Source: Bacteroidota bacterium
Lineage (GTDB): Bacteria > Bacteroidota > Bacteroidia > Chitinophagales > Chitinophagaceae
Assembly (NCBI GenBank): GCA_016183765.1
Contig: JACPEA010000007.1
Location: forward strand, 152,076-216,075
Length of the DNA stretch: 64,000 nucleotides
Direction: 5' to 3'
Part shown: positions 12,813 to 57,319 of the stretch, one piece after another
Layout: the number at the start of each line of letters is the position of its first letter
Position numbering within the stretch: the stretch's first letter is position 1
Notes under the pieces: generated by a model
Told to the model about the DNA's origin: nothing
Database searches by the model: none
Seen by the model: the letters and a program-made list of their open reading frames with translations, nothing else
Position numbers and translations under genes: made by a program

Positions 12813-13661
12813 TCAGCCAATTTTATTAGATTTTTCAATGTTGCACTTCTTGCACAAGATTTGTAAATTTCTATAAGTGGTCGCCCCGCCTTTTGAAAAA
12901 GGTATAATGTGATCAAACTCCAAATTTTCCTGGCTACCACATTTTACGCACCTTCCTGAATCTCTATTCCAAACTTTGTCTTTTACATCTTGTGGTATTG
13001 GCTCTCTATTCCATTCAGAATCCCCGAATTGGTTTGAAATTAGCCCCTCCTCAAGAAGTTCTTTGAATACATCTCTTTGCAATTGTTTTTTACGCTCTTT
13101 TTCTAATAATTCTTGTCTAATTTGATCTTTCTCAGACTTCAATTGTTGATCTTTTAGCTGTTCTTGATATTCTATTCTTCTTTTTTCAATTTCAATTTTG
13201 TTTTCTTCATAAAATGAGTTTACATCTGTATTAAAAAATTTAAAACCATTTTGAATTAGTTTTTCTAACTCAGCTTCTGTTTTGATTCTAACTTCTCTTG
13301 CTGCAGAACCTTGGTTTGGCCCAACTATTCCAATTTGCTCAAGGTTGTCCATGATTCTGCCAGCACGATTATACCCTAATTTCATTCTTCGTTGAATAAG
13401 GGAAGTGCTGCCCATTTGGCTTTGAATTACAAGTCTTGCTGCGTCTTCTAGTAAAGGATCAAATTCGGCAGAAACGTTTTCATTCATTTCTTTTTCGCCT
13501 TTAGCGAAATAATCAATTAAATCATTTTTCTCTTGTTCTGATAAATTGACTTTTTTTTCACTAGGTTCTTTTGGTGATTCTTCTGAAATTAGATTAGTAG
13601 TATTGCTGGAACTTGGTTGTAAAGTTTTTTTTCCTAAAATTCGGTTTAGTAAGTTCATCAT
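12813..13661 (-). CDS. FtsK gamma (winged-helix) domain + coiled coil + HNH endonuclease fusion
   Basis: DPLLEDAARLVIQSQMGSTSLIQRRMKLGYNRAGRIMDNLEQIGIVGP is an FtsK-gamma signature. CVKCGSQENLEFDHIIPFSKGG...NLQILCKKCNIEK is an HNH signature. Confidence 0.85.
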   Translation of the reverse strand: MMNLLNRILGKKTLQPSSSNTTNLISEESPKEPSEKKVNLSEQEKNDLIDYFAKGEKEMNENVSAEFDPLLEDAARLVIQSQMGSTSLIQRRMKLGYNRAGRIMDNLEQIGIVGPNQGSAAREVRIKTEAELEKLIQNGFKFFNTDVNSFYEENKIEIEKRRIEYQEQLKDQQLKSEKDQIRQELLEKERKKQLQRDVFKELLEEGLISNQFGDSEWNREPIPQDVKDKVWNRDSGRCVKCGSQENLEFDHIIPFSKGGATTYRNLQILCKKCNIEKSNKIG

Positions 13662-13678
13662 ACAAGTATTTTAAAATA

Positions 13679-13848
13679 GTAGGCAACCTTCTTGGCTTTG
13701 CGAAGGGCGGGGGAGATTTTCCTTCTGCTGACTTGGCCACTAAAGCTCGATTAATAAAAGCCAATTTACTGAAGCACGGTCAGAAATCCAACAGCCGATA
13801 GCCAAGTACAAATGCCAACTTTTGCCAAGCAGCATGTTAGGCGTAGTT
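13679..13848 (-). other. attC-like recombination site A (170 bp)
   Basis: Read on the minus strand it runs AACTACGCCTAAC ... GTTGCCTAC, with inner arms CTTGGC/GCCAAG. It shares AAAGCCAATTTACTGAAGC and GGTCAGAAATCCAA with site C. Confidence 0.75.
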
Positions 13849-14803
13849 AGTCTGAGACAAACCTTGAAAAAAACTCATTACTCTTCTCTTGACTTTCAAA
13901 AGATGCAAGGTAGTCCAAGGCTATTTGTTCGCTATAATAAGCTGCCAATATATTTGTCATTCTCCTAAAAGCTTCAGGATGTGATTCGCTTTTTGAATTA
14001 CTCACAGTACCCATAATTGCAAAAAATGTACTGAGTACAGGGACAAAATTATTTTTTTCCATTTCGGGAAATAAATTGAATGCAGCTTTTTCAAAAATGG
14101 GATATGCAGAAAGGTCTGCTTTATATTCAATTTCGTGACTTCTGTCTTCTATGAATGCTTCGAATGGATGGTCTGCAAGGTTGGCAAAATTAGCTTCTTC
14201 ATCAAAATCGCCATTAATAAAATGACCAATTTCATGGCAAATAGTGAATAATTCTGAAAGCATTATCGAAACCATGTGAGACAAATATTTTGAATCCAAC
14301 TTTACTAATGCTCCAATAGGGAAATGATATTTTTTGTAGTTATCGAATAGTTCGTTCATGAATTTAATATAGTCATCGCTTGTAAGAGTCTTAATATCTC
14401 CTCTATTACAAAACCTCACAATTTTTGGATTATTCGTCGCATGAGCTAGTTTACCATGTTTATTAAGTAGTATAAATAATCCTTCATAAATTAAAACAGC
14501 ATATTTGCCTGTTGAGCTCTTGGAACAAGTTGCGTTAAAACTTCCATTTCGAACGAAACCAATAGCTAAAGAACTTTCAATTTTTTCTTTTAAGTCTGGT
14601 GAGACTGTATTTAGTATTGCATTTAGGTATTGATTTAGAAGAAATTTCATCTGATACATCCCATCTAATTGGTCAGGAGAAAGATGAACTACATCCTGGC
14701 TGTTAAGTTTTGTGAACTCAGGATCTTTTTCAAAAGGCAAATCATACACTTTCGTACAAATTTGTTGAAGATATTCAAGATATTCTTGAGCTGTGTCAAA
14801 CAT
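13847..14803 (-). CDS. HExxH zinc metallopeptidase, Lit / Peptidase U49-like
   Basis: ICHEIGHF followed by EYKADLSA and HP...R motifs. No signal peptide. Family assignment by motif only. Confidence 0.55.
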   Translation of the reverse strand: MFDTAQEYLEYLQQICTKVYDLPFEKDPEFTKLNSQDVVHLSPDQLDGMYQMKFLLNQYLNAILNTVSPDLKEKIESSLAIGFVRNGSFNATCSKSSTGKYAVLIYEGLFILLNKHGKLAHATNNPKIVRFCNRGDIKTLTSDDYIKFMNELFDNYKKYHFPIGALVKLDSKYLSHMVSIMLSELFTICHEIGHFINGDFDEEANFANLADHPFEAFIEDRSHEIEYKADLSAYPIFEKAAFNLFPEMEKNNFVPVLSTFFAIMGTVSNSKSESHPEAFRRMTNILAAYYSEQIALDYLASFESQEKSNEFFSRFVSD

Positions 14804-14832
14804 GCCTTTTCAATATTTAAAGAGGGTGATAG

Positions 14833-14976
14833 AATTACGCCTAACGGTTTGCAGCTACCCGAAGGGCGGGACTTATACCGCAAAACTTGATTTGAAAAAC
14901 TAATGTTTCATTACCCAAAAAACTTTTTTTAGAACGCGAAACCCCGCCTTTTGGCTAGCTGCTGTTATCGGCTGCC
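14833..14976 (-). other. attC-like recombination site B (144 bp)
   Basis: Imperfect palindrome: GCCTAAC-GGTTTGCAGCTA-CCCGAAGGGCGGG ... CCCGCCTTTTGGC-TAGCTGCT-GTTATCGGC. On the minus strand it ends in the canonical GTTAGGC (GTTRRRY). Confidence 0.8.
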
Positions 14977-15024
14977 TTTCTTCTCATTCTAGAGTCATGC
15001 GTCATATGCTTGTTATCATCTAAG

Positions 15025-16887
15025 TCACAAAGGGAAGAAACCTTGTCGGCCTCTTGTTTTTTCGTTAGTAAAATGTATATAGTTTATCTTTGATTTTAAT
15101 TCTTCTCTTGGTTCTTTATTGTCAAGGATTATTATTTGTCTATCATCTAAAGTATCCGCTAAGTCTTTAAAGAAAGCATCCTGCATATCTCTTGAAATTT
15201 CTTCTAGTTCGCCTTGCTCCTTTCCATGATAAGTTGTCAATGGAGAATCAATTATTATATTTCTTGGGTGTGCTAAATTATTACTTACACAATAGTCCAT
15301 AAGCCCAATTACAAAGGCAGAATAGGTAATGGCTCGAATTCCTTTTCCATGTGCATTTCTGTTTTTCTGATTTATAACGAAGTCAAATATGCTATAATCT
15401 GTATTGAAATTTACAGTAGCTACATTTGGATATTTCCAATTAGTGAGAATTACTTTTATTGTATCACATAAACCTTGAAGAATTGTATATTTTATGCCAT
15501 CAGATTGCTCTCCAACTTTAGGTTTCCTTGCAAGTTCGATTTCAAGTTGATTTCTTTGGCCATAATAGTTTGCAAGTTGTGTTTTGTAAAGTTCTTGCTC
15601 TTTTATTAGGGAAAGCTCAATTAACAACGCATCAATCTCCTCCTTTGTAGAAGATTTTATTGGTTCTATATTATTTTGAATTTCACTTTGAACAATTTGG
15701 TATTGTCGTTTGAGAGAAATTAATTCGTTATCCCTTTTGGATTTGTCGGAATTTAACTGAGCTAATGTGCTTTCTAAGTCAGAGAGTTTGATTTTAATTT
15801 TATCAATCTCCTTTTGAATTGAATCAATTACGCTTGAACTTTTTTTATCTTCTTCAATTATGCAATCGTAGTGGCCTTTGTCCATGTCACCACCACACAA
15901 AGGACACTTAATTGTTGTCAATTGAGAAAAGTAATCTTCTCCTTCTGTAATAAATGCTAATCGCTTTATATCACTATTGTAATGCTCTTGAAGTAAAACA
16001 AATCTGCTTCTTAATTCTTCGTGAAGAATATTTTTGGAATCCAGTTCACTAATTGAATTATAGAGTTGTTTCTTTTCTTTGGTTAAGGTTTCAAGTTGTA
16101 CGCTGGACTCTTGCAAGACAAGCGATAGCTTTTCTATTTTGGCTTGGAGTTGTTTTTGCTTTTCATTGGTTTTTTCCTTTTCTAGTATCAAAATCTTTTC
16201 AGAAAGGTCTTTAATTAAAGAATCTACAAATTCAAGTTTGCCCTTTATTCTACTGTGATAAATTTTAGCTTCCTCAACTTGTTCAAGTTCCTTTGCATCT
16301 TTTCCAGTAAGTAAAATTTCAAGAATGGATTGCTCTTGTATTTGCTGATTGAATTGTCCTGATGAATAAACGGGGGATTTTTCGGTAATGATTCTTTCCT
16401 CGTCAATCAAAGTTAATCTTGCTATATCTCTATAACTTATTTCTCTTTTTGCATTGTTCTTATTAATTCTAACATACTTTTCATCATAGCCAGAAAGTTG
16501 AAGAAGAAAACTGGATATGTTATCTTTTGAACCGTTAACATGTTGCGACTTTAATTCTCTTGCTGTGCCTTGTGTTTGGAACATGTCAATCTCTACTTCT
16601 TTTAATTTAAAAGTTCCGCCTTGCATATTTCTTGAAAGCGTGAATGTTTGTCCAGTGTAGGTTTTAATTTCAAGCAAAATATTTGAATAACCAATTGCTT
16701 CAGGTATTGCTTTGGGTGGATTGCTGCCACCAAGCATATAATTTATGCAAGCGAATACATAGGATTTACCAGTATCGGATAGACCTGAGATAACATTAAA
16801 ACCTTTTTCAAAAGTCAACTTTGCTGGCTTACTCGTTAGACCAGTTACGTGCAAGTTGCTAATGTAGAATCCGAAATTATTGTTCAT
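15025..16887 (-). CDS. lmuB: Lamassu LmuB, SMC/Rad50-like ABC ATPase
   Basis: Walker A GLSDTGKS, coiled coils with a CPLC zinc-hook motif, AHGKG signature and Walker B IIIDSP. 620 aa, the short form. Confidence 0.85.
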   Translation of the reverse strand: MNNNFGFYISNLHVTGLTSKPAKLTFEKGFNVISGLSDTGKSYVFACINYMLGGSNPPKAIPEAIGYSNILLEIKTYTGQTFTLSRNMQGGTFKLKEVEIDMFQTQGTARELKSQHVNGSKDNISSFLLQLSGYDEKYVRINKNNAKREISYRDIARLTLIDEERIITEKSPVYSSGQFNQQIQEQSILEILLTGKDAKELEQVEEAKIYHSRIKGKLEFVDSLIKDLSEKILILEKEKTNEKQKQLQAKIEKLSLVLQESSVQLETLTKEKKQLYNSISELDSKNILHEELRSRFVLLQEHYNSDIKRLAFITEGEDYFSQLTTIKCPLCGGDMDKGHYDCIIEEDKKSSSVIDSIQKEIDKIKIKLSDLESTLAQLNSDKSKRDNELISLKRQYQIVQSEIQNNIEPIKSSTKEEIDALLIELSLIKEQELYKTQLANYYGQRNQLEIELARKPKVGEQSDGIKYTILQGLCDTIKVILTNWKYPNVATVNFNTDYSIFDFVINQKNRNAHGKGIRAITYSAFVIGLMDYCVSNNLAHPRNIIIDSPLTTYHGKEQGELEEISRDMQDAFFKDLADTLDDRQIIILDNKEPREELKSKINYIHFTNEKTRGRQGFFPL

Positions 16888-17386
16888 TTTCTATTCCTCT
16901 TAAAAGTGATTCATTTGAAAATTCACCTCCCCAAACATCCAAATTGTTCTTAATAAAGAGAGAGAGTGTTTCATCGGAGTATGGTTTGAACTTATTGACA
17001 AGCCAAGAAGAAATTTCTTTCAAACTCATGGCGTATTCGGATTTATTGTATTCAAGAAACGGCTTTGTAAGTTCAGTTGCCTTGTATGTGATGCCTGTTG
17101 AATCAAAAACAGAATCTACTAATTGCTTACTGTGCATTAATGTCAGTCCTTTTTTTACCAATTCTCTTTTTACTAAAATTTCGGTTGTTCTGTGTGGTAT
17201 ACTTGGGTGAATACTTTTCGGTCCGCCTGGAACATCACTTGAATGAACTAGTATGTAGTCGTAATACACAAGTCGTTGTAAATCACAACCGTCAGGTTGT
17301 AATTCATTCAATAGATATAAAACTCTTAACCCGATTTCAAGGGGTGAATTGAAAACGCTTGTATTTCTTTCTTCAAATAGATTCAT
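16877..17386 (-). CDS. lmuC: Lamassu LmuC / ABC three-component system middle component
   Basis: FNSPLEIGLR...DLQRLVYYDYILVHS resembles ABC-3C middle components. It overlaps both neighbouring genes. Confidence 0.8.
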   Translation of the reverse strand: MNLFEERNTSVFNSPLEIGLRVLYLLNELQPDGCDLQRLVYYDYILVHSSDVPGGPKSIHPSIPHRTTEILVKRELVKKGLTLMHSKQLVDSVFDSTGITYKATELTKPFLEYNKSEYAMSLKEISSWLVNKFKPYSDETLSLFIKNNLDVWGGEFSNESLLRGIENEQ

Positions 17387-18471
17387 GACTTAACCCAAGT
17401 TAGTTTGTTTTCATTAGCAAGGTGATGGCAAATTCCGATTTTGTCTTGTGTCTTAGAAACTGAAAGCAATGCATTACTTTGAATGTTTAATGCAACTGCA
17501 GTTGCAGTTGTTTTTTTTACATTTTCATATCCACTAGAATGTGTTTGATTTGAAATGTCAACTACTCCATGAAATATTTCTTCTTTCAATTCAGCGAAGC
17601 AATTATTCCCAGTAGGCAAGCTGTCTCTGCTGAACTCATTCAATGCTTCAGCCCAATAAAAGCACTCTCGTTGCCGGTTGAAGTGGTCAAATAATTCCGT
17701 ATGTGAATTTAATTCTGTTATAGTGTGTACATCTATTTTGAGATGGTCGGAATATGCTTCAAATAATTGTTCAACGTATCTAATTGACATTTCAGCTTCA
17801 TGGATAGGATTAATTCTTGGCATCATTCTCCTTTTCAAACCTCCACCAAATCTTGCTGCATAATAACTGGTTTGTTTATGTTGCTCAATTAGTTCTTGAG
17901 GGTCTAAAAATGTGAAAATTGAAAAGTCAATCATTTCAATGTGTGCTTTTAGTTCAGACGACAGCGGAATGTCAACTTTCGTAGTTATACCTCCTTTGCA
18001 GTGTTTGTCCCATTCGATATATAATTGTTTTTTTAGTTCTTCTGGCTTTGTAAGATAATCACCAACTGTTGGGCCGACTCCCTTTGGTGCCACGAAATAG
18101 TATTTATTGGGTAACGAATAATCTTTTTTAAATGTGTAGTAACAAAGTTTTCCCAATTCTAACCAAATATCCCCTGGCATTAAGGCATTGCTATAGTGTT
18201 TACATTGGTAATTGTCCCATTTTCCACTTTCATCAATAATTGCCACAACGTCTCTTCCTTTATCCTTAGCTCCACCTGTTCTCCAAACCTTTATGTATTT
18301 TTTCTCAAAGTAGCCGGCAACCCATTCTCTAACTATGTCTTCAAACTCATCCTCAGATACAATCTTAAGCTTGTCAATTGCAGGAATGGGGGTTCCAATC
18401 AAAATATCCTGATTTGTCAGGAGTCCAATAGACTTGGGTCTTTCTGGTAATATTAGTTCTGCGTCAGCCAA
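17383..18471 (-). CDS. lmuA: Lamassu LmuA effector: Mrr/Cap4-like PD-(D/E)xK nuclease + ABC-3C C-terminal domain
   Basis: FEDIVREW...GGAKDKGRDVVA...YQCKHY nuclease motifs; C-terminal DKIGICHHLANE. TTG start. Confidence 0.8.
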   Translation of the reverse strand: MADAELILPERPKSIGLLTNQDILIGTPIPAIDKLKIVSEDEFEDIVREWVAGYFEKKYIKVWRTGGAKDKGRDVVAIIDESGKWDNYQCKHYSNALMPGDIWLELGKLCYYTFKKDYSLPNKYYFVAPKGVGPTVGDYLTKPEELKKQLYIEWDKHCKGGITTKVDIPLSSELKAHIEMIDFSIFTFLDPQELIEQHKQTSYYAARFGGGLKRRMMPRINPIHEAEMSIRYVEQLFEAYSDHLKIDVHTITELNSHTELFDHFNRQRECFYWAEALNEFSRDSLPTGNNCFAELKEEIFHGVVDISNQTHSSGYENVKKTTATAVALNIQSNALLSVSKTQDKIGICHHLANENKLTWVKS

Positions 18472-18516
18472 ATTTTATTTTTTTAATGTTGCTGTTTTTT
18501 CAATTTAGTTCTTTAA

Positions 18517-18691
18517 GGTTGCCGATAACATTCTAGAACAGGCGAAGGTTGTGGGGAGATATTCCTTCATCTGGCTTAGCCACTAATGCCTCGATTAGCT
18601 AAAGCCAATTTACTGAAGCTTGGTCAGAAATCCAAAGGCTGATGGGTTAACTACAAAACTACATCTTGCCAAGATGCGGTTTGACTGTAGT
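18517..18691 (-). other. attC-like recombination site C (about 175 bp)
   Basis: On the minus strand it ends in GTTATCGGCAACC. Its core is highly similar to site A (19 bp and 14 bp identical blocks at 18601-18619 and 18622-18635). Confidence 0.75.
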
Positions 18692-18702
18692 GTATTTCAG
18701 CA

Positions 18703-19965
18703 CTAGCTAATCACTTTTTCAATATCCTCTTTCCAGGTTTTGAATCCATTTTGTAAGTCTGCGTAATTATGGATAACTCTTTTGAAAGTATCTTCTCTTC
18801 TATTTATATATTCATTTTTTCCGTCTCTGATTATTTCATTGATGATTTTGTCTGTATTTGTCATTACTTTTTTTAAATCTTCTACATTAGCACTCACTGT
18901 CCAAATATAGGTTGCTTCTTCAGTGTCAAGTGTCTCCCAGACAATATGAAACTTTTCAATGCTACTTAAAAGAAATACAAATGAAAATGGTTTGTGAACA
19001 AAGCGTAGCTTTTGTATATGAGCTTGATGTTTACTTGAGAGATATCTTAGGTGTTTGTAATGTTTAGTTGTAGATTTTTCAAGAAGATTTTCAAAAAAGT
19101 CATTTTCAGTCTTAAATATTTTATTTCCATTTAAATTTTCAGTTGCCATGGTTTCAAGGTACTCATCCATGGTAAATAACTGTTTATCACCTAATAAATC
19201 CTTTTTTCTTATCGACTTCACAAAAGCAAATTTAACTTCTTCAATAAGAGTCTTGTCTATTTTCTCTATTTCTTCGGACTTGGCATTTTGTGAAATAATT
19301 CTGCCATCTAATGTTATAATAGATATAGCTACTTGAATTTTCTTTGTTTTTAATACACTTGAAAAATAATTTTTGATTGCGTCATATTCTTCTATGATGT
19401 TATCATTTATTATTTCAAATTCAATTTGTTTTTTAAAATGTTGTATCTTCTTTTCAAAAGCCACTTTTCCAGAAAGAAAGCTTACATGTTTGATTGGAAT
19501 TGAAAATGATTCATAGTAAGTTTCTTTCTTTGGTTCTCTTTGAATTTTTAGTTGAAGTTCTGTTGAGGTGTCTTTACTATCTTCTATTGATTTTTGTTGC
19601 AAAATCTTTATAGGATTGTTGCTATTTGAATTCGGTAATGGCTTGCTTGTGTTTATACTAAAAGACTGCAAAAGCCCTCTTGTTTCGATGCTTTTAAATT
19701 TTACTTTCTCTATTGTAATTAATGTTTCGGCTAGTTTGATTTGACTATTTGAAAATTTTGTTTCGCCTACGTCATATGATAAAACTTCTACGATTATTGT
19801 ACACTCATTTTCTATATAGTCAAGTACTCTTACTGTCCAGAATGCAGGTGCTTTTAATTTTATTGGAAAATCAGAAATTTGAACTTGCTCAAAATCTAAT
19901 GCAATCTCTTCTGTAAGAAAAGCTAAGTCGTCTTTAAACAAAATATTTAGCTCTTGTCCTTTCAT
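18703..19965 (-). CDS. Hypothetical cytoplasmic protein (420 aa), first cassette of the array
   Basis: Intact AT-rich ORF. The C-terminus KLRFVHKPFSFVFLL...WETLDTEEATYIW resembles a domain I recall from Bacteroidota DEAD/DEAH helicases, but no helicase motifs are present here. Confidence 0.7.
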   Translation of the reverse strand: MKGQELNILFKDDLAFLTEEIALDFEQVQISDFPIKLKAPAFWTVRVLDYIENECTIIVEVLSYDVGETKFSNSQIKLAETLITIEKVKFKSIETRGLLQSFSINTSKPLPNSNSNNPIKILQQKSIEDSKDTSTELQLKIQREPKKETYYESFSIPIKHVSFLSGKVAFEKKIQHFKKQIEFEIINDNIIEEYDAIKNYFSSVLKTKKIQVAISIITLDGRIISQNAKSEEIEKIDKTLIEEVKFAFVKSIRKKDLLGDKQLFTMDEYLETMATENLNGNKIFKTENDFFENLLEKSTTKHYKHLRYLSSKHQAHIQKLRFVHKPFSFVFLLSSIEKFHIVWETLDTEEATYIWTVSANVEDLKKVMTNTDKIINEIIRDGKNEYINRREDTFKRVIHNYADLQNGFKTWKEDIEKVIS

Positions 19966-20260
19966 TAGTAGATTGTTTAGGTAACATTACAAGCAACTTT
20001 ACAATGTACGTTATTTTATAAAAAATATAAAATATTTATCTTATATATTGATGAACAAGTAATGGATAGTTAAATAAATGAAGTAGTCAATTCGCTACTT
20101 TTAGAGCAAATAACTTCTGTAAATAGCATTTTACAATGAGCCCACATGCTATATATACACGTGCTAAATGTCAGTATGAAATTGCCCCCACAACTTTTTT
20201 GAATCCCCCTTGTGTCCCCCCGGGGTATATGTTTGATGTATATTATATGGGCAACTAAAA

Positions 20261-20314
20261 TGTTTACCCATTGTTTACCCCTTAATAAAAAAAACCTCAT
20301 AAGTCAATGACTTA
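20261..20314. other. Putative integrase arm-type sites and palindrome at the end of the cassette island
   Basis: TGTTTACCC repeated at 20261-20269 and 20272-20280; palindrome TAAGTCA-A-TGACTTA at 20300-20314, just outside the left att. Confidence 0.5.
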
Positions 20315-20336
20315 CAAGGCTTCTTATTTACTACTG

Positions 20337-20353
20337 GTGAACCGGATTGGATT
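20337..20353 (+). repeat. Left att core of the prophage (copy of the tRNA-Arg 3' end)
   Basis: GTGAACCGGATTGGATT, identical to 59640-59656. Confidence 0.93.
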
Positions 20354-20490: not shown

Positions 20491-20510
20491 GGTTAGGACA
20501 GCGTTAGGAA
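20491..20510 (+). other. Putative integrase arm-binding sites (left arm)
   Basis: GGTTAGGAC-AGCGTTAGGAA; AGCGTTAGGAA recurs at 59576-59586 inside the right end. Confidence 0.6.
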
Positions 20511-20512: not shown

Positions 20513-21313
20513 ATGAAACGATATAGTGTCAATCTCATTCTCTGGAGACACGACCCTGTCGGAGAGCTCAAAGATCAGTACCCAATTTACCTGAAAATTG
20601 TCGTTGAGGGAAAGAAATCTTACATCTCCACCGGAGTCGTTGTAAAGGCTATACAGTGGGATAGCAGTAATCAGTGCGTGGTGGCTCACCCGACCGCCCG
20701 GCTGCTTAACATGGATCTCACCAATCGCAAAAGCCAGGCTTTGCAGCGCATCATTAATTTGGAGCTGGGTGGAAAGGACTTCTCAGCCTTATCGCTGAAG
20801 CAGCAGCTGATAGGAACCAATCCATCCAACATCTTTGACTTCATCGATCGCTACTATGCTGAGGTGCGGGACAAACGTTCTACAGGTACTCTGATTCAGT
20901 ATCGCAAGCATCGAAACACACTCAAAGCCTTTCATGGTTCTGATGATCTTACCTTCGAACAGATAACTCCGGATTACCTGCTGAAGTTTGAGACACACCT
21001 GCGGAAGGAGATGAAGAACAATTACATCAACTCCATATTCAGGATGTACAAGGCCTTCTTCAATGCAGCCATCAAACGTGGTGTCACTACCAACTATCCT
21101 CTGCAGGGTGCAAATCCTGAAGACTGGGGTAAGCCTACAGCATTCGCTGCTGCCGGCGTACAGTACAGCGTCTATCTGCTCACCGGTGAGACCAGCGAAA
21201 GCTCTCCGACTCCGGTTGAAAAGCATGTAGACAAGAGCACTATCATCCTGGCTATTCCTTCCAATGGAGCAGCCAACGCTGATGTAGCTGTAAAAGGTAT
21301 CCTTGCCCTGTAA
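20513..21313 (+). pseudogene. Chimeric ORF: tyrosine integrase N-terminus (arm-binding + SAM-like core-binding domains) fused in frame at about 21100 to an unrelated 70 aa C-terminus, probably from a capsid-module gene
   Basis: YPIYLKIVVEGKKSYISTG (Bacteroidota arm-binding domain) and LTFEQITPDYLLKFETHL...FFNAAIKRG (SAM-like domain) stop at TNYP. There are no R-H-R-Y catalytic residues. The tail LQGANPEDWGK...TIILAIP is not integrase-like. Confidence 0.8.
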
Positions 21314-21344
21314 GCGTAGAGCACTTCTGTAACACTTTATATCC

Positions 21345-21376
21345 ACAGGCGGGGGTTTTCTCCGCCTGTTTTGTTA
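21345..21376 (+). terminator. Intrinsic terminator after the chimeric ORF
   Basis: ACAGGCGG-gggttttct-CCGCCTGT followed by tttgtt. Confidence 0.75.
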
Positions 21377-21398: not shown

Positions 21399-22040
21399 AT
21401 GACTCCAAACGAAATCACCACGCTGATCGCCTCAAACCTGGATAAGGAACTGGATATGCCTTTTAAACTCCAACTGATGGAGCGGGTGAAATACTGGCGC
21501 AGCCGGTTACTGGTCAATACCGTAAACAAGGATCCCTTCCAGCGACGGTTCTTCAAACAGACCCTGTATCTGACCATGGAGCCTTCTTCCAAGATTCGCT
21601 GTGCATCGCTGGTGAACATACCAGTGTCGGCCACACAGGTGGCAGTGCCGCAGGAGGTTATCGCCGGAAGCGTACAGTTCGACTACGTAGGTGGCGCAGA
21701 CGGTTCGTCTCCCTTTCAGCAACTGCAGGCCGGTACAGAGCTTTATCTCAGTAGCGGTAAATTCTACCCTCTCTGCGGACACTACGAATTCATCAACCGT
21801 TTCATAGTTACAGACAAGGAGCGATTACCGCTCATTCGCATTGACGCAATATTCGATGATCCTCAGTTGATACAGCAATTGAGTGCCGCTTGCACAGGAC
21901 AGACCTGCGACACGTGGAACCAGGAGTTTCCGGTAAACAATCAGATCATGCAACTGATCGTGCAGTCCATACTGCAGGTCGATTACAACCGTGCTGAGCG
22001 CGAGGATACTCCACAGATAGAAGTAAATAACACTAAATGA
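21399..22040 (+). CDS. crAss-like conserved virion structural protein (neck/ring or portal-vertex family)
   Basis: Resembles the conserved genes that follow the capsid genes in crAss-like phages (FDYVG..DG..PF; IRIDAIFDDP). Supported by position. Confidence 0.6.
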   Translation: MTPNEITTLIASNLDKELDMPFKLQLMERVKYWRSRLLVNTVNKDPFQRRFFKQTLYLTMEPSSKIRCASLVNIPVSATQVAVPQEVIAGSVQFDYVGGADGSSPFQQLQAGTELYLSSGKFYPLCGHYEFINRFIVTDKERLPLIRIDAIFDDPQLIQQLSAACTGQTCDTWNQEFPVNNQIMQLIVQSILQVDYNRAEREDTPQIEVNNTK

Positions 22041-22041
22041 T

Positions 22042-22656
22042 ATGGCAAAACAGATACTAAAACCAAGGATGATCTACTTGCGTGAGATATACACTCAATT
22101 CGCGCAGAGTGAACTGGATAAACATCCTGAGTGGTGGGGAAAATATGAACAGAAGGTCAAGCTTAAAAACTGCTACATCTACGCCAAGGAGCGGGATCAT
22201 GTGGTACTGAAGATGAGCTGGTACAGCTTCAAGGAGATAGTAGAAAGCTACTTCCACAAAGCAAAGGCCGCTATCATCCAGGGTGAAACACTTCGCATCG
22301 GGGCCAGTGTCGGTAAGATACGAGCCATACGTGTAGAGCGGAATTTCTCCAACCCGGTGATAGACTGGGTGAAGACCTACACCAACAAGGAGTTCGATGA
22401 GAAGGGTCACCTGATCAAACGCTACTATACGGACGAAGACTGGTGCAGAATAGAGTGGGAGAAATTCGGTGTACTCAGCAATGAGAGCATCTACAACTTT
22501 TACCCGGCCACCCGTAACATGGCCACCAATAAAGGGTTCAAAGCAGAGTTTGTACAAGCCTTGCGAAAAGACCCGCTGTTGAAGTTTAAATACAAGTTCT
22601 ACCCATACGTGAAGGTAGAACGCAAACAGACCAAAGATGAACTACAACCTCTGTAG
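22042..22656 (+). CDS. crAss-like IHF/HU-like DNA-binding protein
   Basis: FKEIVESYFHKAKAAIIQGETLRIGASVGKIRAIRVER resembles the HU/IHF fold. It sits just before the tail genes, as in crAss-like phages. Confidence 0.6.
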   Translation: MAKQILKPRMIYLREIYTQFAQSELDKHPEWWGKYEQKVKLKNCYIYAKERDHVVLKMSWYSFKEIVESYFHKAKAAIIQGETLRIGASVGKIRAIRVERNFSNPVIDWVKTYTNKEFDEKGHLIKRYYTDEDWCRIEWEKFGVLSNESIYNFYPATRNMATNKGFKAEFVQALRKDPLLKFKYKFYPYVKVERKQTKDELQPL

Positions 22657-23428
22657 CATGCGCGAAGTGATCGGAAGGATCATCCGTAACACACGGTTAC
22701 AGGATTCTTCCTTCATTGAAAGTATGCATGACTGGATATTCGAAGCTGTCTCCATGATGAAGACCAAGCAGACACTGCAGGGTGACTGGGAGGAGGTCAA
22801 CGTGGTGTTTCACAAAGGACAGTGGCCATGCGGACTGGTGTATGTCGACGCGGTCGAGTACAATGGTAACCGCCTGGTTCATGGAGGTAGCGTACGGCCG
22901 GCGGAGAAAGAGACGGCCTATCTCAATCCAGCGAATGGAGACATCTTCTTCTCAGAGGTGAACAAAGTGCCTACCACAGAGAACCACAGCATCTATGTTA
23001 CCAAGATGACCGAGGCCAGAAGCCTGCCTGCGGGTAAAGATTACTACACCACTGATACACCCGGTTACATTACCACTTCATTCGCTGATGGTAAAGTGAC
23101 GGTGTATTTCAGGCGTTACCCGGTGGATAAGGATGGCATACCGATGATCCCTGACAATGAGAACTTCAAGCAGGCCATCTACTGGTACGTACGAGCCATG
23201 ATGATCGGTGCAGGTTACCCCGATAAGGCATTCTCCTACGAGCAGTGCTTTGAAAAGTTTGAGAAACTCTATGCGCCCAGGGCTGTGGCTGAGATCCGGT
23301 ATCCGACACCGGACGAGATGGAGCACAGGGTCAACACGTTTGTACGATTCATGCCACCTCAGAACTATTACGACAACTTCTTCCGGAACGATTTCGGAGA
23401 AGGTATTTATGATACCAAAGTCTGGTAA
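22637..23428 (+). CDS. Tail tubular / ring protein (P22 gp4-like family of crAss-like phages)
   Basis: REVIGRIIRN...DWIFEA start; YITTSFADGKVTVYFRRYPVDKDGIPMIPDNENFKQAIYWYV; directly precedes the stabilization gene. Confidence 0.7.
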   Translation: MNYNLCSMREVIGRIIRNTRLQDSSFIESMHDWIFEAVSMMKTKQTLQGDWEEVNVVFHKGQWPCGLVYVDAVEYNGNRLVHGGSVRPAEKETAYLNPANGDIFFSEVNKVPTTENHSIYVTKMTEARSLPAGKDYYTTDTPGYITTSFADGKVTVYFRRYPVDKDGIPMIPDNENFKQAIYWYVRAMMIGAGYPDKAFSYEQCFEKFEKLYAPRAVAEIRYPTPDEMEHRVNTFVRFMPPQNYYDNFFRNDFGEGIYDTKVW

Positions 23429-28768: not shown

Positions 28769-29526
28769 CACCAGGATGCACCAACCCGGCAGCAGCGAAT
28801 TACAATCCTGCGGCGGATACAGAAGATTACAGCTGTATATACCTCAAACGGTATGACGGGACTTGTTATGCCTTTCAGGATGTACCACCCAGCGAGATCG
28901 AAGACAAGTCTTTCACGCTCTCGTTTTCGCTGGAAGAGATGGACTGGGTGATGTTCCATGACTACATCCCGGACTTCTACTTCAGTACCCGCAACAGGCT
29001 GTTCAACCTGAAAGGCAATAAGATATACAAGCATAACGCCGGAGCTCCCGGTGTATACCATAGTTCAACACCGAAGTCCTTTTTCATTGACATGGTATTC
29101 GCTGACAAGCAGGAGATGCTCCTGCGCAGTGTTGAGTGGATCACAGAGGTGATAGGTAACAACGTGGAGACCGAGATGTCGACGCTGACCCACATCACCA
29201 TCTGGAATGCTCAGCAGTGTACCGGCCGTATCGCACTGTCCAGCGTGTTTGATCAGCTGCAGTACAGCACACACAGAAAGACCCAGGGAAAGTGGTCTTT
29301 CAACCATATCCGGGACATGGTCAAGACCCGTGGAACTACCTTCCTGCTTGATATATTTAACAATTTTGCAGTGATTAGTAACTCAATTTCACAGACTAAG
29401 CCATGGTATGAAAAAGCCCTGTTATCCGATAACTACTTTGTGATACGCTTCGAATTCGATAACACCAGCGGTAAACAGATCTTCTTCCATGGTGCTGATA
29501 TTAATGATAAACTTACCCCACGATGA
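28765..29526 (+). CDS. C-terminal part of the muzzle/stabilization protein encoded as a separate gene
   Basis: ATGA overlap with the upstream stop (the ORF track starts at TTG 28759). It opens with a GCTNPAAANYNPAA..DYSC motif, then FTLSFS...WVMFHDYIPDFYFSTRNRLF...IYKHN, which resembles the C-terminal part of crAss-like stabilization proteins. Confidence 0.7.
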   Translation: MTPGCTNPAAANYNPAADTEDYSCIYLKRYDGTCYAFQDVPPSEIEDKSFTLSFSLEEMDWVMFHDYIPDFYFSTRNRLFNLKGNKIYKHNAGAPGVYHSSTPKSFFIDMVFADKQEMLLRSVEWITEVIGNNVETEMSTLTHITIWNAQQCTGRIALSSVFDQLQYSTHRKTQGKWSFNHIRDMVKTRGTTFLLDIFNNFAVISNSISQTKPWYEKALLSDNYFVIRFEFDNTSGKQIFFHGADINDKLTPR

Positions 29527-30404
29527 GCCTCATTGCACGCTATAAAAAATACGGATTCGGCAGTTCGATGACCCCCGATCAGATGCAGGCGGCTACAACT
29601 GCAGGTGCTACAGCCGGCCTTGTGGGCCAGGTAGCCGAAGCTGCTTTTCCTCCCAACAGGTACGGACGTACAGCTACGGCTGGAAATGTACTGGGGGATG
29701 CCGGTAAGTTCGGCGCTATGGGGGCACAGGTGGCCGGACCATGGGGAGCTGTGGCTGGTGCCGGTATCGGACTGGTGACCGGGCTGTTCCGCAGTGGAGC
29801 ACAGAAGAAAGCAGAGCAGGAAGCAAAGATGCATGAGAGTTGGGCTATGCAGCAGAATGATCAGGCCAACGCCGCTGCCCGGATCGGTGCAGACCCTTCG
29901 CTTGTGAAGGGTAACCTGGCAGCCGGATACTACGCTGCTGGAGGTGAGTTGAAAGATTCCACAACAGTGAAAGTACCTAAGATCGATATGGCTGAAGAAC
30001 TGCGTGCGATCAATGCCGGGAAAACAGGATTTACTGCAGCGCAACGCGACAGTATCGCAAGTACATTCAATAAAGATGCTTACGCTCAGCACAAAAATGG
30101 TTCCGCAACACCGCTCTCCTCTACAGCCATCCAGTTCAATGGGCCGTCACACGAGAACGGTGGTATCCAGATCCCAGGGAAGAACGCTGAGGTAGAAGGT
30201 GGAGAAACCAGCACAGGCGACTATGTGTTCTCTGAACGCTTAGGATTCGCTCAACTGCATAAACCTATCGCCCGTGCCATCGGCAAGCTGGAACAGAAGC
30301 CGGCTTCTCCGGAGCGTATCAACAGCTTGAAACTGCTGAAAGGAGAGGAGGGCAAACTGAAAGTATTACAGGAATACACCAAGCAACGGCTTGGATTAAA
30401 CTGA
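29523..30404 (+). CDS. crAss-like virion cargo/ejection protein
   Basis: Gly/Ala-rich membrane-like segment (GAQVAGPWGAVAGAGIGLVTGLF) and the motif GPSHENGGI...EVEGGET...YVFSERL typical of crAss-like cargo genes. Confidence 0.7.
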   Translation: MSLIARYKKYGFGSSMTPDQMQAATTAGATAGLVGQVAEAAFPPNRYGRTATAGNVLGDAGKFGAMGAQVAGPWGAVAGAGIGLVTGLFRSGAQKKAEQEAKMHESWAMQQNDQANAAARIGADPSLVKGNLAAGYYAAGGELKDSTTVKVPKIDMAEELRAINAGKTGFTAAQRDSIASTFNKDAYAQHKNGSATPLSSTAIQFNGPSHENGGIQIPGKNAEVEGGETSTGDYVFSERLGFAQLHKPIARAIGKLEQKPASPERINSLKLLKGEEGKLKVLQEYTKQRLGLN

Positions 30405-30409: not shown

Positions 30410-31372
30410 ATGAATAAAGATACCGCATTGATGAAGAAGTTCGCTGGCAGGAGACTGTTGGCGGCAGGTGGCCCGGGCGTTCTAGTGAAGGATCCAAAGA
30501 TGCTTACCTGGGTGAATGAACTGACTGGCAGTCCGGCATTGCCTGCTGCTGCGTCTGAGCCAAAGAAGTGGGAACCGGTACAGATGCTTGATCAACCCAG
30601 GATGTTTACACCTGTAGGGTCGGAACCGGCGTCTGCAACTCTGTTTGACAAGGTTCCCAGTGGGGCAGTAGCTGGTAACAACTCACAGGCCACTCAGCCT
30701 TCTATCTGGAATAAGTTGGGTACCATAGCTTCCAGTGCTGCGAAGAACAGCGGACAACTGATACCCTATATCTCCAATATCGCTAACTCTTTCCGCAAAC
30801 CCATGCGGCCTTTGCGTCCACTGACCCTTGATCCGGTTACAGCTGAGCGTGTATCCGGCGATGCTCAGCGGGTAGAAGCTGACCATACCATGCGGACACA
30901 GAACCTGGCAGCGGATCGTAACCTGGATGAGAATTCAGCAGCAGCCGTAAAAGCTGCGAACCTTGCCGGCTCCATTACAGCGAAAAACGGTATTGCTCAG
31001 TGGGAGGCCAACACCAACGCTGGATTGCGTACCCAGGCTAATCAGTTGAATGCCGGCATTGCAGCTCAGAACAACTCACTGCTGTCACGTTACAACGATA
31101 ACCTGGTAGACTGGAACAATACAGTACAGCGTACACAGTCTGAGAACATCGCCAATGCGGCCGATAAATACATCAACATCAAAAATGACCAGGACAAGGG
31201 TGACCTTGAGAAGCGCAAGCTGGGAATATACAGTCAGCTGTTCAAGAACAGTGGTGTGATGGGACGTGCCGTTGACGGTTACAAGACCTGGTTGAAAGAG
31301 AATAACCTGACAGATCCCACCATACAGGCGTATGGCGGTAAGATGACATCACGTAAAAAAGTATTTCGCTAA
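30410..31372 (+). CDS. Putative virion cargo/ejection protein
   Basis: Ala/Asn/Gln-rich helical protein inside the cargo gene block. Confidence 0.55.
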   Translation: MNKDTALMKKFAGRRLLAAGGPGVLVKDPKMLTWVNELTGSPALPAAASEPKKWEPVQMLDQPRMFTPVGSEPASATLFDKVPSGAVAGNNSQATQPSIWNKLGTIASSAAKNSGQLIPYISNIANSFRKPMRPLRPLTLDPVTAERVSGDAQRVEADHTMRTQNLAADRNLDENSAAAVKAANLAGSITAKNGIAQWEANTNAGLRTQANQLNAGIAAQNNSLLSRYNDNLVDWNNTVQRTQSENIANAADKYINIKNDQDKGDLEKRKLGIYSQLFKNSGVMGRAVDGYKTWLKENNLTDPTIQAYGGKMTSRKKVFR

Positions 31373-51043: not shown

Positions 51044-51786
51044 TGTTATTTCCTACACCACATATCAACACCAGCCAAAATACAGCATTGGAAAAGCTCA
51101 GTGACCTGGGCTATAACTATTTCCTGCGCGAAAAATATCAGCTGCATTTTGACAATAAGCATACGGATCGTAAGTACCTGCTGCTGTTGCAGGCTATCGG
51201 CTCCTGGGATAACCGCTCTGGCGCTGTCAATGCCTTCACTGAGGCTCAGCTTGCCAACATGCTCGACAGGTTAACCTGCGTTTCCAAGGATCCGCTGGTG
51301 AAATACCAGCCACCGGTTACCGGAGGTACCTGCGGTGTCGGTGGAACTACCGCCGGACTGGGATACGCAGCAGGTCTGAGTGGAAGCCTGAGCGGTATCA
51401 CCCTTGGCATTCTCAATACCCGCAGCATCAACCTGACACTGGTCAACGATACATTGTCAGCTAACACCAATGTATCCAATGTGAGCGGTAATGCTTTGAC
51501 AGTGCTTACCGATGGTTTGTACGTCACACAAGCTTCGACGGGTACCAGTAAGTTCATCCGGTCGGATGCATTTACAACCTCAACCCAGTATAACGATGTT
51601 TCGCTGAAGGATAAGCAGTTCGTGGTGACCTATCGCGGATATGGAGAGTTGTATTACAACTGGGCCAATCCCAGCGATCCTCTGAACGAGTTTCAACTGG
51701 TAGGTACAGGTGGGTTCAATATTACAATACCAGGATTCGATGTCACATTGGATCCTAATAACACCTTCCACATCCTGATACTATGA
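51043..51786 (+). CDS. Hypothetical phage tail-associated protein
   Basis: Intact ORF coupled to its neighbours; Gly-rich linker and beta-rich C-terminus. Confidence 0.5.
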   Translation: MLFPTPHINTSQNTALEKLSDLGYNYFLREKYQLHFDNKHTDRKYLLLLQAIGSWDNRSGAVNAFTEAQLANMLDRLTCVSKDPLVKYQPPVTGGTCGVGGTTAGLGYAAGLSGSLSGITLGILNTRSINLTLVNDTLSANTNVSNVSGNALTVLTDGLYVTQASTGTSKFIRSDAFTTSTQYNDVSLKDKQFVVTYRGYGELYYNWANPSDPLNEFQLVGTGGFNITIPGFDVTLDPNNTFHILIL

Positions 51787-54700
51787 AAAAAGTAATATCC
51801 ATACTGGTACTGATCGGGGTCTTGACACTGGCTTTCAGTCTTGGACTGCATGCGCAACCTGTCATGCAACGGGCTACCGGATCCACAACAGTGGCCGACA
51901 GTCGCCTGATGGTACAGTTGAACTTCTTTCTGCCTAAATATACCGATACTACCGTGGCCAACTCCAGCAAAGGAGTCGACAGTTGCGGGGCGTTGATATT
52001 CACCACCGATAACAAAATATGGGTTCGTGAATGTTCTCCAAAGCGCTGGGCCTATGTGGCCAGCGGCAATTACCTGAACAGTAAACTCAATATCAGTGAT
52101 ACGGCCAACATGCTGCAGACCTATGTAAGGGTGCAGCGTTTCCTGGATTCGCTGGTAGCTGTGCAGTTGCGTGTGCAGAGTAAGCAGCCTATTGGCAACT
52201 ATCTGCAAGCCGGCAACAATCTGGCTGATGTCAGTAACGTCAATACAGCTCGCAGTAACCTTGGCGTCTTCTCCAAAGCGGACACCACTGCCCCGGGCGG
52301 TATGTACCCGTGGAGTAACCCGCTGGGATTCCTCACATCAGCGACTGGTAGTTACCAACGCGTGAGTAAAGTTGACACACTATTTCCTGTCCGGGGAATT
52401 TTGGACTTTTCAGCTGAGTTCAATCTCACTGATTACCCTACAAAGACAACCGTGTCGATTGCACGGATTGCATCCAGTAAGATCACAGGTTTGGCTAATG
52501 GCGCTTACTTTGATACAACCTCTCTCATTCCACGTTTCAATCAACGGGTTCTATACTCTGATATAGCTGGGATGTTAGCCGGTTATCTACCACTATCCCT
52601 TCCATCAAGCAAAGCTGTAGTACTGAATGGAAACACATTGGATTTTTACGGTACAAATGGAGCGGGCCAATATACTTCAGGTAGGGTTGTAGTCTATCCT
52701 AACTTCGGTGGCGTTGGCTATCAGGTGGGTGGTAATTTTTATGGCTTGGCGGTAGATACACTTGGTATTGGGTCTTATTCAAGCCATGCAGGTAAGCCGC
52801 TTAACTACGCATCGAATTATTCCGCCAATATGGGCGATAATTCTCTCATAAATAGGCTGTATGCTGACGGCAGGTATATTAGCAAGACTGGTACGGACAC
52901 TATCTCAGGCGTTAAGACATTTACCGGATACCCGCTTACTTTAGATGGCACAACTCTTTCGTTAAAGAATTACACCAACATAAATATCTATGATGGTCAG
53001 CCTATCAACTGGAGAAGAACGAGCGATAATGCTTACATGGGTTATATTCAAGATAACCAAGTAGACGAGTGGCAATTTGATGCAACCCCTGGAGTACACA
53101 TGACTGTTCGCATTCCTGATATAAGGTTGGCAACAGGAACAAGTGGCAAGGTGAAGATCGGAGCAAATAGCGCAGCAGCACAAGCATTGGATGTGGTTGG
53201 TACTATTCGGCAATCATCTGTAGCATCTTCCGTTTTAAAGGCAAATGCGTCGGGTGATATAGTGGCTGCTGTGGCAGGTACAGATTATCAGGCAGCATTG
53301 GGCTTTACTCCCGAAAACGTTGCCAATAAGGGTGCCGCCAACGGATATGCGCCTATAGGATCCGATTCCAAGATAGCTACAACCTACCTGCCAGCTATCA
53401 CCATGAATAATGTGTTCACAGCGGCCAGCCAGTCGGCTATGTTAGCCCTTTCGGCGGTGGTGGGTGATATGTGTGTGCGCACGGATAGTACCATAACCTA
53501 TGTACTCCAGGTAGCAGCGCCTTCCAATCCGGCAGCATGGGTTAAGATACTAAGCCCATCGGCACCAGTTTCCTCTGTAAATGGGAAGACAGGAGTTGTG
53601 AGCCTGCTCACATCCGATATATCAGAGGGAGGCACATCCTACTATTGGACTGCAGCCAGATCCCGTGCTGCGCAATCAGTATCTGCTGTTGGTTTGACCT
53701 ATAACAATACCACAGGGGATATATCCATTACTGCAGGTTATGTGATACCTACCACCACAGATATCAGTAATGGGAATACGGCATATAGCAAGCGGGTAAC
53801 GGCGGTCGATCTGTCTGCCTCTACGCTTACGATCACTTTTGCTGATGCTTCAACAGTAACAGCTTCTGTACCTACATTCAACCAGAATACTACCGGCAAC
53901 GCTGGTACTGTTACAAACGGTGTTTATACAACAACATTCAATGGATTAGGTGATGCAAGGTATTTACAGCTAACTGGTGGGACATTAACAGGTGGGCTCG
54001 CCGGTACAACAGCATCATTTTCACTTGGAAATATTTCAGGTGGTATTGGTTCTGTAAAGAACCTAACTGTTACTAATACAAATGGTGCGGTTGGTGATTT
54101 TGCTGGATTAAACTTTGCATACTATAACAGTACAACAAATTTTGCGTACATAGGAACAGTTCTTACCAGTGCTGCATCTAATTCAGCAGCTGATTTAGTT
54201 TTCGGGGTTAAGGCAAATGCGTCTGCAACAACTGTTACAGAATACATGAGAATTGCTGTTGGTGGAGCAACAACTTGGGCAGGTAGCGGTACCTTTAGTG
54301 GTACAGTAACATCTGGTGTTGCTAAAATAGGTACTTGGTCTGCTTCATCAAGCTACGCTCGTTTCGGACATTCAAGCTACGATGTTGCAAGCAACTCTGG
54401 ATTTCTTCAAAGAAGTGATGGATTTTTATATCTTGAAGGTTCTTCTCTCTACGTGTCCGCTGTAGCAGGTTCAAGTGATGTTATAGTATATGCTGATAAT
54501 GGTGGTAAGATTGGGAAGATGGTTATCGGTTCTGGTCTATCATTTAGCGGAGGTACTCTATCAGCAACAGGTGGTTCTGCTGGTACTGTAACAGGTAGTG
54601 GTACTGTTGGATATATACCATTGTGGAATAGCGCAAGTGATATTGGTAATAGTCAGATAAGCCAAAGTGGGGGTTTAGTGAACATCAATGGTAACATACA

Positions 54701-56878: not shown

Positions 56879-56891
56879 ATAAACAGATAAC

Positions 56892-57290
56892 ATGAAAATC
56901 TTAACAGTATTACTGAGCCTGATGTTAACGCTCACATCTTCTGCCAGCGAAATCCATCCTACAGCTGTGACTGTAACCGCTCAGGTGAGTTCCACTGTAA
57001 TGAGTGAGACGCTGGTGATCCCCAAAGGTGCAAAGCAGATCAATCCTGTCGTTGTAACCTTCAAGGGAGACTCCGCTTACTCAGTGAGCTGGGTTGTCAA
57101 CAAGATCACCAGCGACACCACGGTGGACAGTTATGGTGAGGTATACCTTAACGGCAAGCAAGGTTATCCTATCGTACAGTTCGGTATCACTATTCCGAAA
57201 GCGATCATCAATAGTTGGGGACTGGACAACTCTTCCATTGATGACTTCATATTCAAACTACCCGAGATGAAACGTTTCGTTCGTAAATAA
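56892..57290 (+). CDS. Hypothetical exported protein
   Basis: Signal MKILTVLLSLMLTLTSSA. Confidence 0.6.
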   Translation: MKILTVLLSLMLTLTSSASEIHPTAVTVTAQVSSTVMSETLVIPKGAKQINPVVVTFKGDSAYSVSWVVNKITSDTTVDSYGEVYLNGKQGYPIVQFGITIPKAIINSWGLDNSSIDDFIFKLPEMKRFVRK

Positions 57291-57319
57291 TTTATCACTT
57301 AAACCCTAAATCACAGATC

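Follow-up and report, generated by a model that had tools for sequence, protein, structure and literature searches.

Our results argue that the 64-kb stretch of Chitinophagaceae DNA analysed here (the window) holds what is left of a temperate crAss-like prophage of ~90 kb, in which a later deletion at a short homology left a by-product open reading frame (ORF) and a block of late genes; we give this reading a probability of roughly 85%. The element measures 39,320 bp between two exact direct repeats of 17 bp, GTGAACCGGATTGGATT, which are the sole long match between the two zones compared. The left repeat (20337-20353, + strand) is the attL core and a copy of the 3' end of tRNA-Arg(tct), while the attR core (59640-59656) is formed by the 3' 17 nt of the tRNA gene itself (59640-59714, - strand, called by ARAGORN). 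This tRNA gene is intact and 100% identical to that of a genome of the same genus, G326, which keeps the same right-flank gene. The integrase start codon falls 160 bp inside attL, and the locus brings together the direct att repeats, the tRNA 3' end and the integrase gene adjoining one repeat that mark a tRNA-integrated prophage. An exact 11-mer, AGCGTTAGGAA, is found only twice in the 64-kb window, once per att arm: 3 bp before the ATG in the left arm (20500-20510, + strand) and at 59576-59586 (+ strand) in the right arm. The two copies fit candidate arm-type integrase sites of one attP, a role that we infer from the repeat in both arms.

The tRNA-Arg locus is a variable hotspot in the genus. 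The region to the left of the element (12.8-20.3 kb) is a block of low GC (0.29-0.36) that contains defence-type genes (MC2, CTD6, HNH and FtsK-gamma); the repeat comparison of the zones placed it outside the repeat and detected no att copy of its own. We considered this defence island as the source of the integrase and rejected it: an att copy separates the two, there is no third att and the compositions differ. The GC3 of the integrase part is 0.59, against 0.58-0.64 for the phage late genes.

The chimeric gene and its junction

The by-product ORF (20513-21313, + strand, 266 aa) is a fusion of an integrase N-terminus to a capsid-module C-terminus. This was the proposal of a sequence-only reading of the same DNA, and both halves have now been identified through Pfam, homologues and a fold match of the parent capsid family. 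The integrase part covers residues 1-189 (20513-21079, + strand) and carries the arm-binding domain (PF17293, Arm-DNA-bind_5, residues 21-92, E 4.2e-11, over the curated cut-off) and the SAM-like core-binding domain (PF13102, Phage_int_SAM_5, residues 107-196, E 2e-17, the end of the match reaching into the ambiguous junction motif discussed below). The catalytic domain PF00589 has no match in the 266-aa protein and the PHROGs annotation 'integrase' is restricted to residues 71-202, in agreement with the earlier view that both DNA-binding domains were kept and the catalytic one was gone. Judged by this domain content, the 266-aa ORF encodes an integrase fragment and not an integrase; with the catalytic domain absent the element would therefore be unable to excise itself, as had also been anticipated. 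Full-length integrases found among 5.8 billion proteins searched (P0002 and P0003, 361-380 aa) are 43-44% identical to residues 4-203 of the chimera, and the alignment with the 380-aa P0002 ends at residue 204. A search of the protein collection with region 1-190 as query found no closer intact integrase homologue, and a search of the genome's contigs revealed neither a second copy nor a C-terminal half of the integrase anywhere in the genome.

The rest of the ORF (21080-21313, + strand) corresponds to the C-terminal ~77 codons and stop of a gp36-like auxiliary capsid gene. Searching the 5.8 billion proteins with the chimera returned two kinds of matches, the full-length integrases and a set of unnamed capsid-type proteins (P0004-P0019), fifteen of them 312-332 aa in length and one a fragment of 160 aa (P0018). 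The last ~80 residues of these proteins are 55-69% identical to chimera residues 187-266, the nearest auxiliary capsid protein standing at 69% to the chimera tail. What had been described as 70 unrelated residues is thus a stretch of ~77 residues clearly related to the C-terminus of a crAss-like family of 312-332 aa. The family gene lies directly 5' of CrAss_Ring_2 in the relatives L001, L002 and G403, and the order on long relative contigs is as follows: proteins of 700, 815 and 390 aa, the Crass_capsid major capsid protein (MCP), proteins of 306 and 350 aa, the auxiliary capsid-family protein, ring protein 2 (R2), a 209-aa protein, ring protein 1 (R1) and proteins of 1600-1720 aa.

Neither Pfam nor PHROGs provided a name for the auxiliary-capsid family or for the terminase- and portal-sized proteins, an HMM search of this family and of the two families upstream against PDB sequences was empty, and among 50,697 phage records tblastn found no meaningful match to the 70-aa tail. 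The link of the auxiliary-capsid and upstream families to phicrAss001 came solely from fold comparison. The fold test was run on a family member, P0005, not on the chimera fragment: its AlphaFold model (pLDDT 76.8) has a single strong PDB match, 7qof_a (Foldseek E 2.6e-10, TM 0.45), which is chain a (333 aa) in entry 7QOF, the capsid of phicrAss001. This length equals that of gp36, the capsid auxiliary protein of phicrAss001, which has 333 residues and a PH domain built from residues 1-74 and 238-333 (PMC10172136). The suspected match of the tail to crAss-like capsid proteins was therefore obtained through the model of its family. As modelled, the chimera tail represents the last quarter of an auxiliary capsid protein of the gp36 type, kept at its original position ahead of R2; the full-length, two-domain protein of ~330 aa is not present in the window, where only the last ~77 residues are found. 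As part of a split gp36 PH domain, the 77-aa tail would probably not fold on its own.

The two halves meet at a peptide motif that both parents possess. Across the junction the chimera reads F-F-N-A-A-I-K-R-G-V-T-T-N-Y-P-L-Q-G-A-N-P, where the integrase relatives have F-F-N-A-A-R-R-R-G-L-I-T-N-Y-P-F and R-R-K-G-L-V-K-H-Y-P-F and the capsid family has D-V-[YLM]-K-G-V-T-T-[QN]-Y-P-L-Q-G-A-N-P. The chimera is integrase-type up to K188-R189 and capsid-type from L197 (LQGANPED), and the peptide G-[VL]-[TI]-T-N-Y-P at the junction is common to relatives of both. The intervening R189-P196 (RGVTTNYP, eight residues), encoded by the 24-nt interval 21077-21100 (+ strand), is compatible with either parent, with V191-T192 favouring the 5' side of the interval for the break. 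The break had been placed at ~21100, after NYP; this needs correction, since it may lie anywhere in R189-P196 (21077-21100), where the motif fits both parents. As the motif is in the same frame and on the same strand in both parents, a crossover there gives an in-frame fusion, and the kept reading frame needs no selection to explain it. Short-homology recombination at the motif would explain the endpoints together with the frame and is the simplest account. How long the homology was at the DNA level and how much was lost are inferred from relatives, the nearest of which are 44% (integrase) and 69% (capsid) identical.

This assembly did not create the junction. Eight contigs assembled from 5 other sequencing runs encode precisely the same 266-aa chimera and match the window for more than 10 kb to the left and right of it. 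In addition, positions 10513-61043, a range that takes in attR and the host flank, are covered by contigs from 9 runs at 99.98-100% identity. Against these contigs the window shows just 2 SNPs and one 96-bp indel: the SNP at 21775 changes R2 (C126F), and the one at 30087 adjoins a 96-bp in-frame segment of a late gene that is missing from the window's genome (a private deletion). All sampled copies of the element are one clone. The search for the same deletion in independent material was thus successful in that the identical junction recurs in 5 other runs, but all these copies belong to that clone; they show that the junction is real and say nothing on its age or spread.

Retained and missing modules

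Downstream of the chimera the gene order is that of a crAss-like late block. The auxiliary capsid gene still has its own intrinsic terminator at the 3' end (21345-21369, + strand; 11-bp stem, 7 G-C pairs, T-run), and terminator-like hairpins stand at the equivalent intergenic place in L002 and G403. The terminator is followed by R2 (21399-22040, + strand; CrAss_Ring_2, E 4.6e-5, under the curated cut-off), a 204-aa ORF on the same strand that lies between R2 and R1 within 21399-23428 and is collinear with relatives, R1 (22637-23428, + strand; CrAss_Ring_1, E 1.6e-34) and a muzzle-like protein, so that the terminator and neck/tail genes recognised in the sequence-only reading are indeed there. 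The stretch from R2 to R1 (21399-23428) is 53-59% identical to, and collinear with, L001, L002, L012 and G403. The following block (23432-51786, + strand) encodes, again collinear with relatives, the muzzle-like protein of 1778 aa (with DUF5977 and Cadherin domains in Pfam), internal/cargo proteins and giant virion proteins of 1751 and 3735 aa; it is matched by phrog_15100 and phrog_16227 and is 30-60% identical to, and collinear with, G403 by tblastn. R1, R2, a muzzle-like protein and a giant virion protein in conserved order identify the block as crAss-like.

The end of the late block (51783-59472, + strand), described with PHROGs and Pfam, is variable and has no G403 counterpart: it contains a 1400-aa fibre-like protein whose C-terminus matches the tail-fibre family phrog_33119, small ORFs and a holin (Phage_holin_4_1 in Pfam), and the GC3 of 51783-56878 is lower (0.31-0.34). 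No retained ORF is interrupted, the large ones of 1778, 1751, 3735 and 1400 aa among them, which agrees with what had been noted from the open reading frames, and set against G403 they are close to full length. A 320-aa ORF lacks ~220 C-terminal residues of its G403 homologue. That all retained ORFs are open fits recent loss and purifying selection alike. Pfam and PHROGs recognised no regulator in the retained block.

The extent of the loss emerges from complete relatives, which were taken from IMG/VR by an alignment-based scan; the two closest are G402 (87,118 bp) and G403 (91,265 bp, circular by terminal overlap). A viral-contig scan with R1 as a single protein gave no match. Collinearity between G403 and the window begins at residue 247 of the auxiliary capsid protein and runs via R2, R1 and the muzzle-like, internal and giant proteins up to window position 51786. 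The remaining stretch of G403, from the auxiliary-capsid point round to the integrase, amounts to 54.6 kb and contains the head genes (702, 821, 387, 515-MCP, 309 and 349 aa) and, on the opposite strand, an early block with PolA, a DnaB-like helicase, a DEAD/SNF2-type helicase, ThyX and a 5'-3' exonuclease. With the retained late genes in the window as positive control, tblastn of the G403 missing-block proteins against the 17 contigs of the genome (99.98% complete) detected none of them but the host's own polA. Domain, PHROGs and tblastn searches agree with the earlier statement that no terminase, portal, major capsid or replication gene is recognisable between the att repeats, and the hallmark genes TerL, portal and Crass_capsid MCP, all present in L001, L002 and G403, are absent from both the element and the genome. 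On gene content, then, the element is a remnant and not a phage genome. The missing genes being found nowhere in the genome, the block was lost rather than moved; an inversion or translocation instead of a deletion was rejected, as there is neither a reciprocal chimera nor any missing gene elsewhere. The proposed loss of tens of kb is borne out, at ~54 kb by comparison with the 91-kb G403. One junction is most simply explained by one event, but internal deletions of earlier date may also have contributed.

The loss extends beyond the head. The two genes between MCP and the auxiliary capsid gene in relatives (306-aa and 350-aa proteins) are also missing from the element, and the sole good matches of one product are 7qoj_F (E 8.7e-4) and 7qoj_E, as obtained with a low-confidence model (pLDDT 56). 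By hhalign, the 350-aa family matches neither R1 nor R2. In phicrAss001 two ring genes, gp34 and gp35, come before gp36 in the gene order (PMC10172136), which is consistent with this match. On this modelling, at least one of the lost genes probably encoded a tail-barrel ring. The description of the element as an intact headless tail was thus overstated, since two genes before the auxiliary capsid gene are gone, one of them tentatively tail-barrel-ring-like.

The virion module of phicrAss001 comprises gp32 (MCP), gp34/35 (rings), gp36 (auxiliary capsid), gp40 (R2), gp43 (R1) and gp44 (muzzle) (PMC10172136). The relatives of the element are ordered alike, with MCP, two genes, a gp36-like gene of ~330 aa, R2, one gene, R1 and muzzle, and predicted models of their proteins match the folds of 7qof_a, 7qoj_E and 7qoj_F. 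However, the tested families have no HMM-detectable sequence identity to phicrAss001 proteins, the host here is an environmental Chitinophagaceae and not a gut Bacteroides, and the lineage here carries integrases.

Ownership of the integrase and proposed course of the deletion

G402 and G403 each encode a tyrosine integrase of 374 aa right after the last late gene, convergent with the late block. In circular form, the window int would take the same map position, after the lysis genes and across attP. The G402 and G403 integrases are of a different type from the window integrase and lie on the opposite strand, a difference which suggests that lysogeny modules have been swapped. No integrase was seen in three complete relatives that are more distant. 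It is likely, given this map position, that the integrase was the crAss-like phage's own.

The integrase might instead have come from a second integrative element that sat in tandem at the same tRNA, the deletion having run from the int of that element into the phage. This is an unlikely course of events, although it draws some support from the nearest intact integrase homologue, P0002, which belongs to an unrelated temperate phage (we examined its contig as a possible crAss-like genome and rejected this), from the other integrase type used by G402 and G403 and from the variable nature of the tRNA-Arg hotspot. However, it requires an extra element that has left no other trace at a locus with a single att pair. 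Moreover, the 11-mer is present in both att arms, the right one abutting the phage's last gene, the int occupies the map position where the relatives keep theirs and its composition is phage-like.

We favour the phage-owned integrase, and propose that a single step mediated by short homology would have given rise to products with no function of their own. A temperate crAss-like phage of roughly 90 kb would have integrated by its own tyrosine integrase into the tRNA-Arg(tct) 3' end of a Chitinophagaceae bacterium, yielding a prophage with the order attL, int, early/replication block, head, auxiliary capsid, tail and cargo genes, lysis genes and attR. As the integrase is truncated, the deletion came after integration. 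One illegitimate recombination between integrase codon ~190 (KRG-[LV][IT]TNYP) and auxiliary-capsid codon ~250 (KG-VTTNYP), which share orientation and frame, would then have removed about 50-55 kb. With this DNA would have gone the integrase linker and catalytic domain, any excisionase or repressor, all replication genes, terminase, portal, a scaffold-like gene, MCP, two structural genes and three quarters of the auxiliary capsid gene. The products left over would be the by-product ORF, which closes with the stop codon and terminator of the capsid gene, and a late block of 38 kb no longer able to replicate, package, excise or build a complete tail.

Fate of the remnant and its significance

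The element is most likely a recent, dead relic. Among 401 Chitinophagaceae genomes (151 genera, including 4 genomes of the same genus) a homologue of R1 occurs in this one only, and there is thus no conservation across lineages; the contigs of the 9 runs, coming from one clone with 2 SNPs, carry no information on selection. This narrow distribution, combined with the losses of portal, early and probable ring genes, favours the relic among the two fates that had been offered by the sequence-only reading.

That the host has put the late block, the chimera or both to use has, in our estimation, only a small chance of being true; if it were so, the host would use, for example, a lysis/giant-protein cassette, or a catalytically dead Int that occupies att/arm sites and excludes related temperate crAss-like phages. 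The second of these uses, in which the dead Int fragment is dominant-negative against related incoming phages or locks the att sites, is compatible with the deletion scenario and we regard it as quite improbable; the blocking of att sites that the sequence-only reading had raised is speculative. In its favour, both DNA-binding domains are practically whole, the ORF has kept its start codon and the sequence before it, the native terminator follows and candidate arm sites exist in both att arms. Against it, the 77-aa tail is the C-terminal part of the gp36 split domain and would probably not fold alone, the chimera is confined to a single clone and its kept frame is explained without selection.

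It is still less probable that the deletion was a domestication step, by which a headless tail, cargo, a giant RNAP-like protein and the lysis block were kept as a tailocin- or secretion-like weapon. The uninterrupted and nearly full-length ORFs of 1778, 1751, 3735 and 1400 aa would be expected of such a device, and so would the kept holin and the fixation of the element in every sampled contig. However, a single genome of the 401 in the family has it and the sampled copies are one clone, the early and regulatory genes are all lost, the window's genome has a private 96-bp deletion in one late gene and the 320-aa ORF is short of ~220 C-terminal residues with respect to its G403 homologue. Assembly is a further obstacle: with the portal and head genes gone there is no portal for R1 to dock on, and of the two genes lost before the auxiliary capsid gene, one is tentatively tail-barrel-ring-like. 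In phicrAss001 the barrel ring nearest the portal consists of R1 (PMC10172136). As the portal is gone here, a complete tail is unlikely to assemble, and the suggestion of a domesticated, secretion-like device finds no support.

Finally, a collapsed or chimeric join of a chromosomal integrase with a co-occurring crAss-like phage during assembly, which the position of the join on a short shared motif might bring to mind, deserves practically no credence: the same junction is found with more than 10 kb on each side in independently assembled Logan contigs of five runs, contig L134 continues from the block's right end across attR and the tRNA gene into genes of the host, the shared stretch is at most ~21 nt and too short for assembly collapse, and no full-length version of either half exceeds 69% (capsid) or 44% (integrase) identity in the 5.8-billion-sequence collection, which includes those runs.

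As a defective prophage, the element is a case of ordinary prophage decay, of a known kind: module loss by deletion is a normal prophage fate and in this respect the core finding is ordinary. The cryptic prophages of E. coli K-12 are defective prophages made by internal deletion, and they resemble the element in having att repeats at a tRNA gene, deleted essential modules and neither excision nor virions. Here, in contrast, the element is crAss-like and its whole loss is explained by one junction, at which integrase and capsid protein are joined in frame through a motif common to both. Tailocins (R- and F-type pyocins) and gene transfer agents are likewise chromosomal phage-derived blocks without replication genes, but they are conserved among strains, self-regulated and equipped with a complete assembly set, whereas the element occurs in one clone only, has no regulators, portal or, probably, ring genes and originates from a podovirus-type tail. 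To our knowledge, no tailocin derived from a podovirus is known.

The junction itself provides a clean natural example of a short-homology deletion, involving a near-identical heptapeptide in the same frame of two unrelated genes. The broader significance lies in the lifestyle of the parent phage. A 2023 review of the Crassvirales concluded that true lysogeny in the group is not supported by the available evidence (PMC10136315), and a 2024 paper described two incomplete Epsilon-crAss-like prophage sequences in Parabacteroides distasonis and P. merdae (PMC11054128). Those sequences are, like ours, partial crAss-like sequences in a Bacteroidota chromosome that hint at a temperate lifestyle, but in the present case the att duplication, tRNA target, integrase remnant and exact junction are resolved, and both the host family and the phage clade differ. 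We consider it probable, if somewhat less so than the deletion history itself, that in this relic a crAss-like lineage has left a direct genomic trace of classical lysogeny, with an integrase acting at a tRNA. The relic would as such be rare direct evidence for integration by a crAss-like phage, a group usually held to be non-lysogenic, and the findings point to an environmental, Chitinophagaceae-infecting clade of temperate crAss-like phages.

Late genes that depart from those of relatives

At 51783-56878, GC3 is 0.31-0.34 across two genes, one fibre-like (1400 aa) and the next encoding 298 aa, well below the values of 0.53-0.64 in the remaining late block. The pair looks like an exchanged host-recognition module because no counterpart of these genes was found in G403, one of the two closest complete crAss-like relatives. 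A second departure concerns the 320-aa ORF at 30410-31372, which ends 8 residues beyond its similarity to a 523-aa homologue in G403 and of which the version in L001, a long contig of a crAss-like relative, is 500 aa; some 220 residues at the C-terminus are missing from the ORF, and no remnant sequence has been left behind.

At a finer scale, 96 bp (32 codons, in frame) are missing at 30087-30094 in the ORF at 29523-30404 and are present in all the metagenome contigs (L007, L008, L139, L140 and L141), with a K-to-Q SNP 6 nt ahead of the break. Either the window's genome alone has lost these codons from a late gene, or the assembly slipped at this point. Besides this site, the sole difference between the window and the contigs of other runs is found at 21775, where the window has G and the contigs T; residue 126 of ring protein 2 (21399-22040) is accordingly Cys in the window and Phe in the contigs.

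Integrase and early genes of complete relatives

Both G402 (87.1 kb; L047) and G403 (91.3 kb; L048-L052, 79433-81569), crAss-like genomes in IMG/VR, encode a 374-aa tyrosine integrase, the gene of which is convergent with the last late gene, encoding a 230-aa peptidoglycan-binding-like protein. The gap of about 320 bp between the two genes is a candidate attP. In a 93-kb relative (L024, 7157-7435), a 92-aa early gene with a weak Pfam match to Acb2_Tad1_hairpin, an anti-defence sponge family, falls in the block corresponding to the part deleted from the window.

Surroundings of the att sites

Directly outside attL (20337-20353) lies a low-GC block (12813-20336, GC 0.29-0.36), the minus-strand genes of which encode conflict-system domains (PF20288 MC2, PF20282 CTD6 and HNH + FtsK_gamma). 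No att copy belonging to the block itself was found, and the truncated integrase at 20513 is separated from the block by the att repeat and belongs with the phage.

The tRNA-Arg(tct) locus was compared in four genomes of the same genus (G131, G399, G326 and G242; L019-L023). The right-hand neighbour of the tRNA gene is kept in three of them, but the sequence 3' of the tRNA gene is different in each; in G131 the tRNA gene is inverted and its flanking genes are 28 kb apart. The tRNA-Arg(tct) locus is an insertion hotspot.
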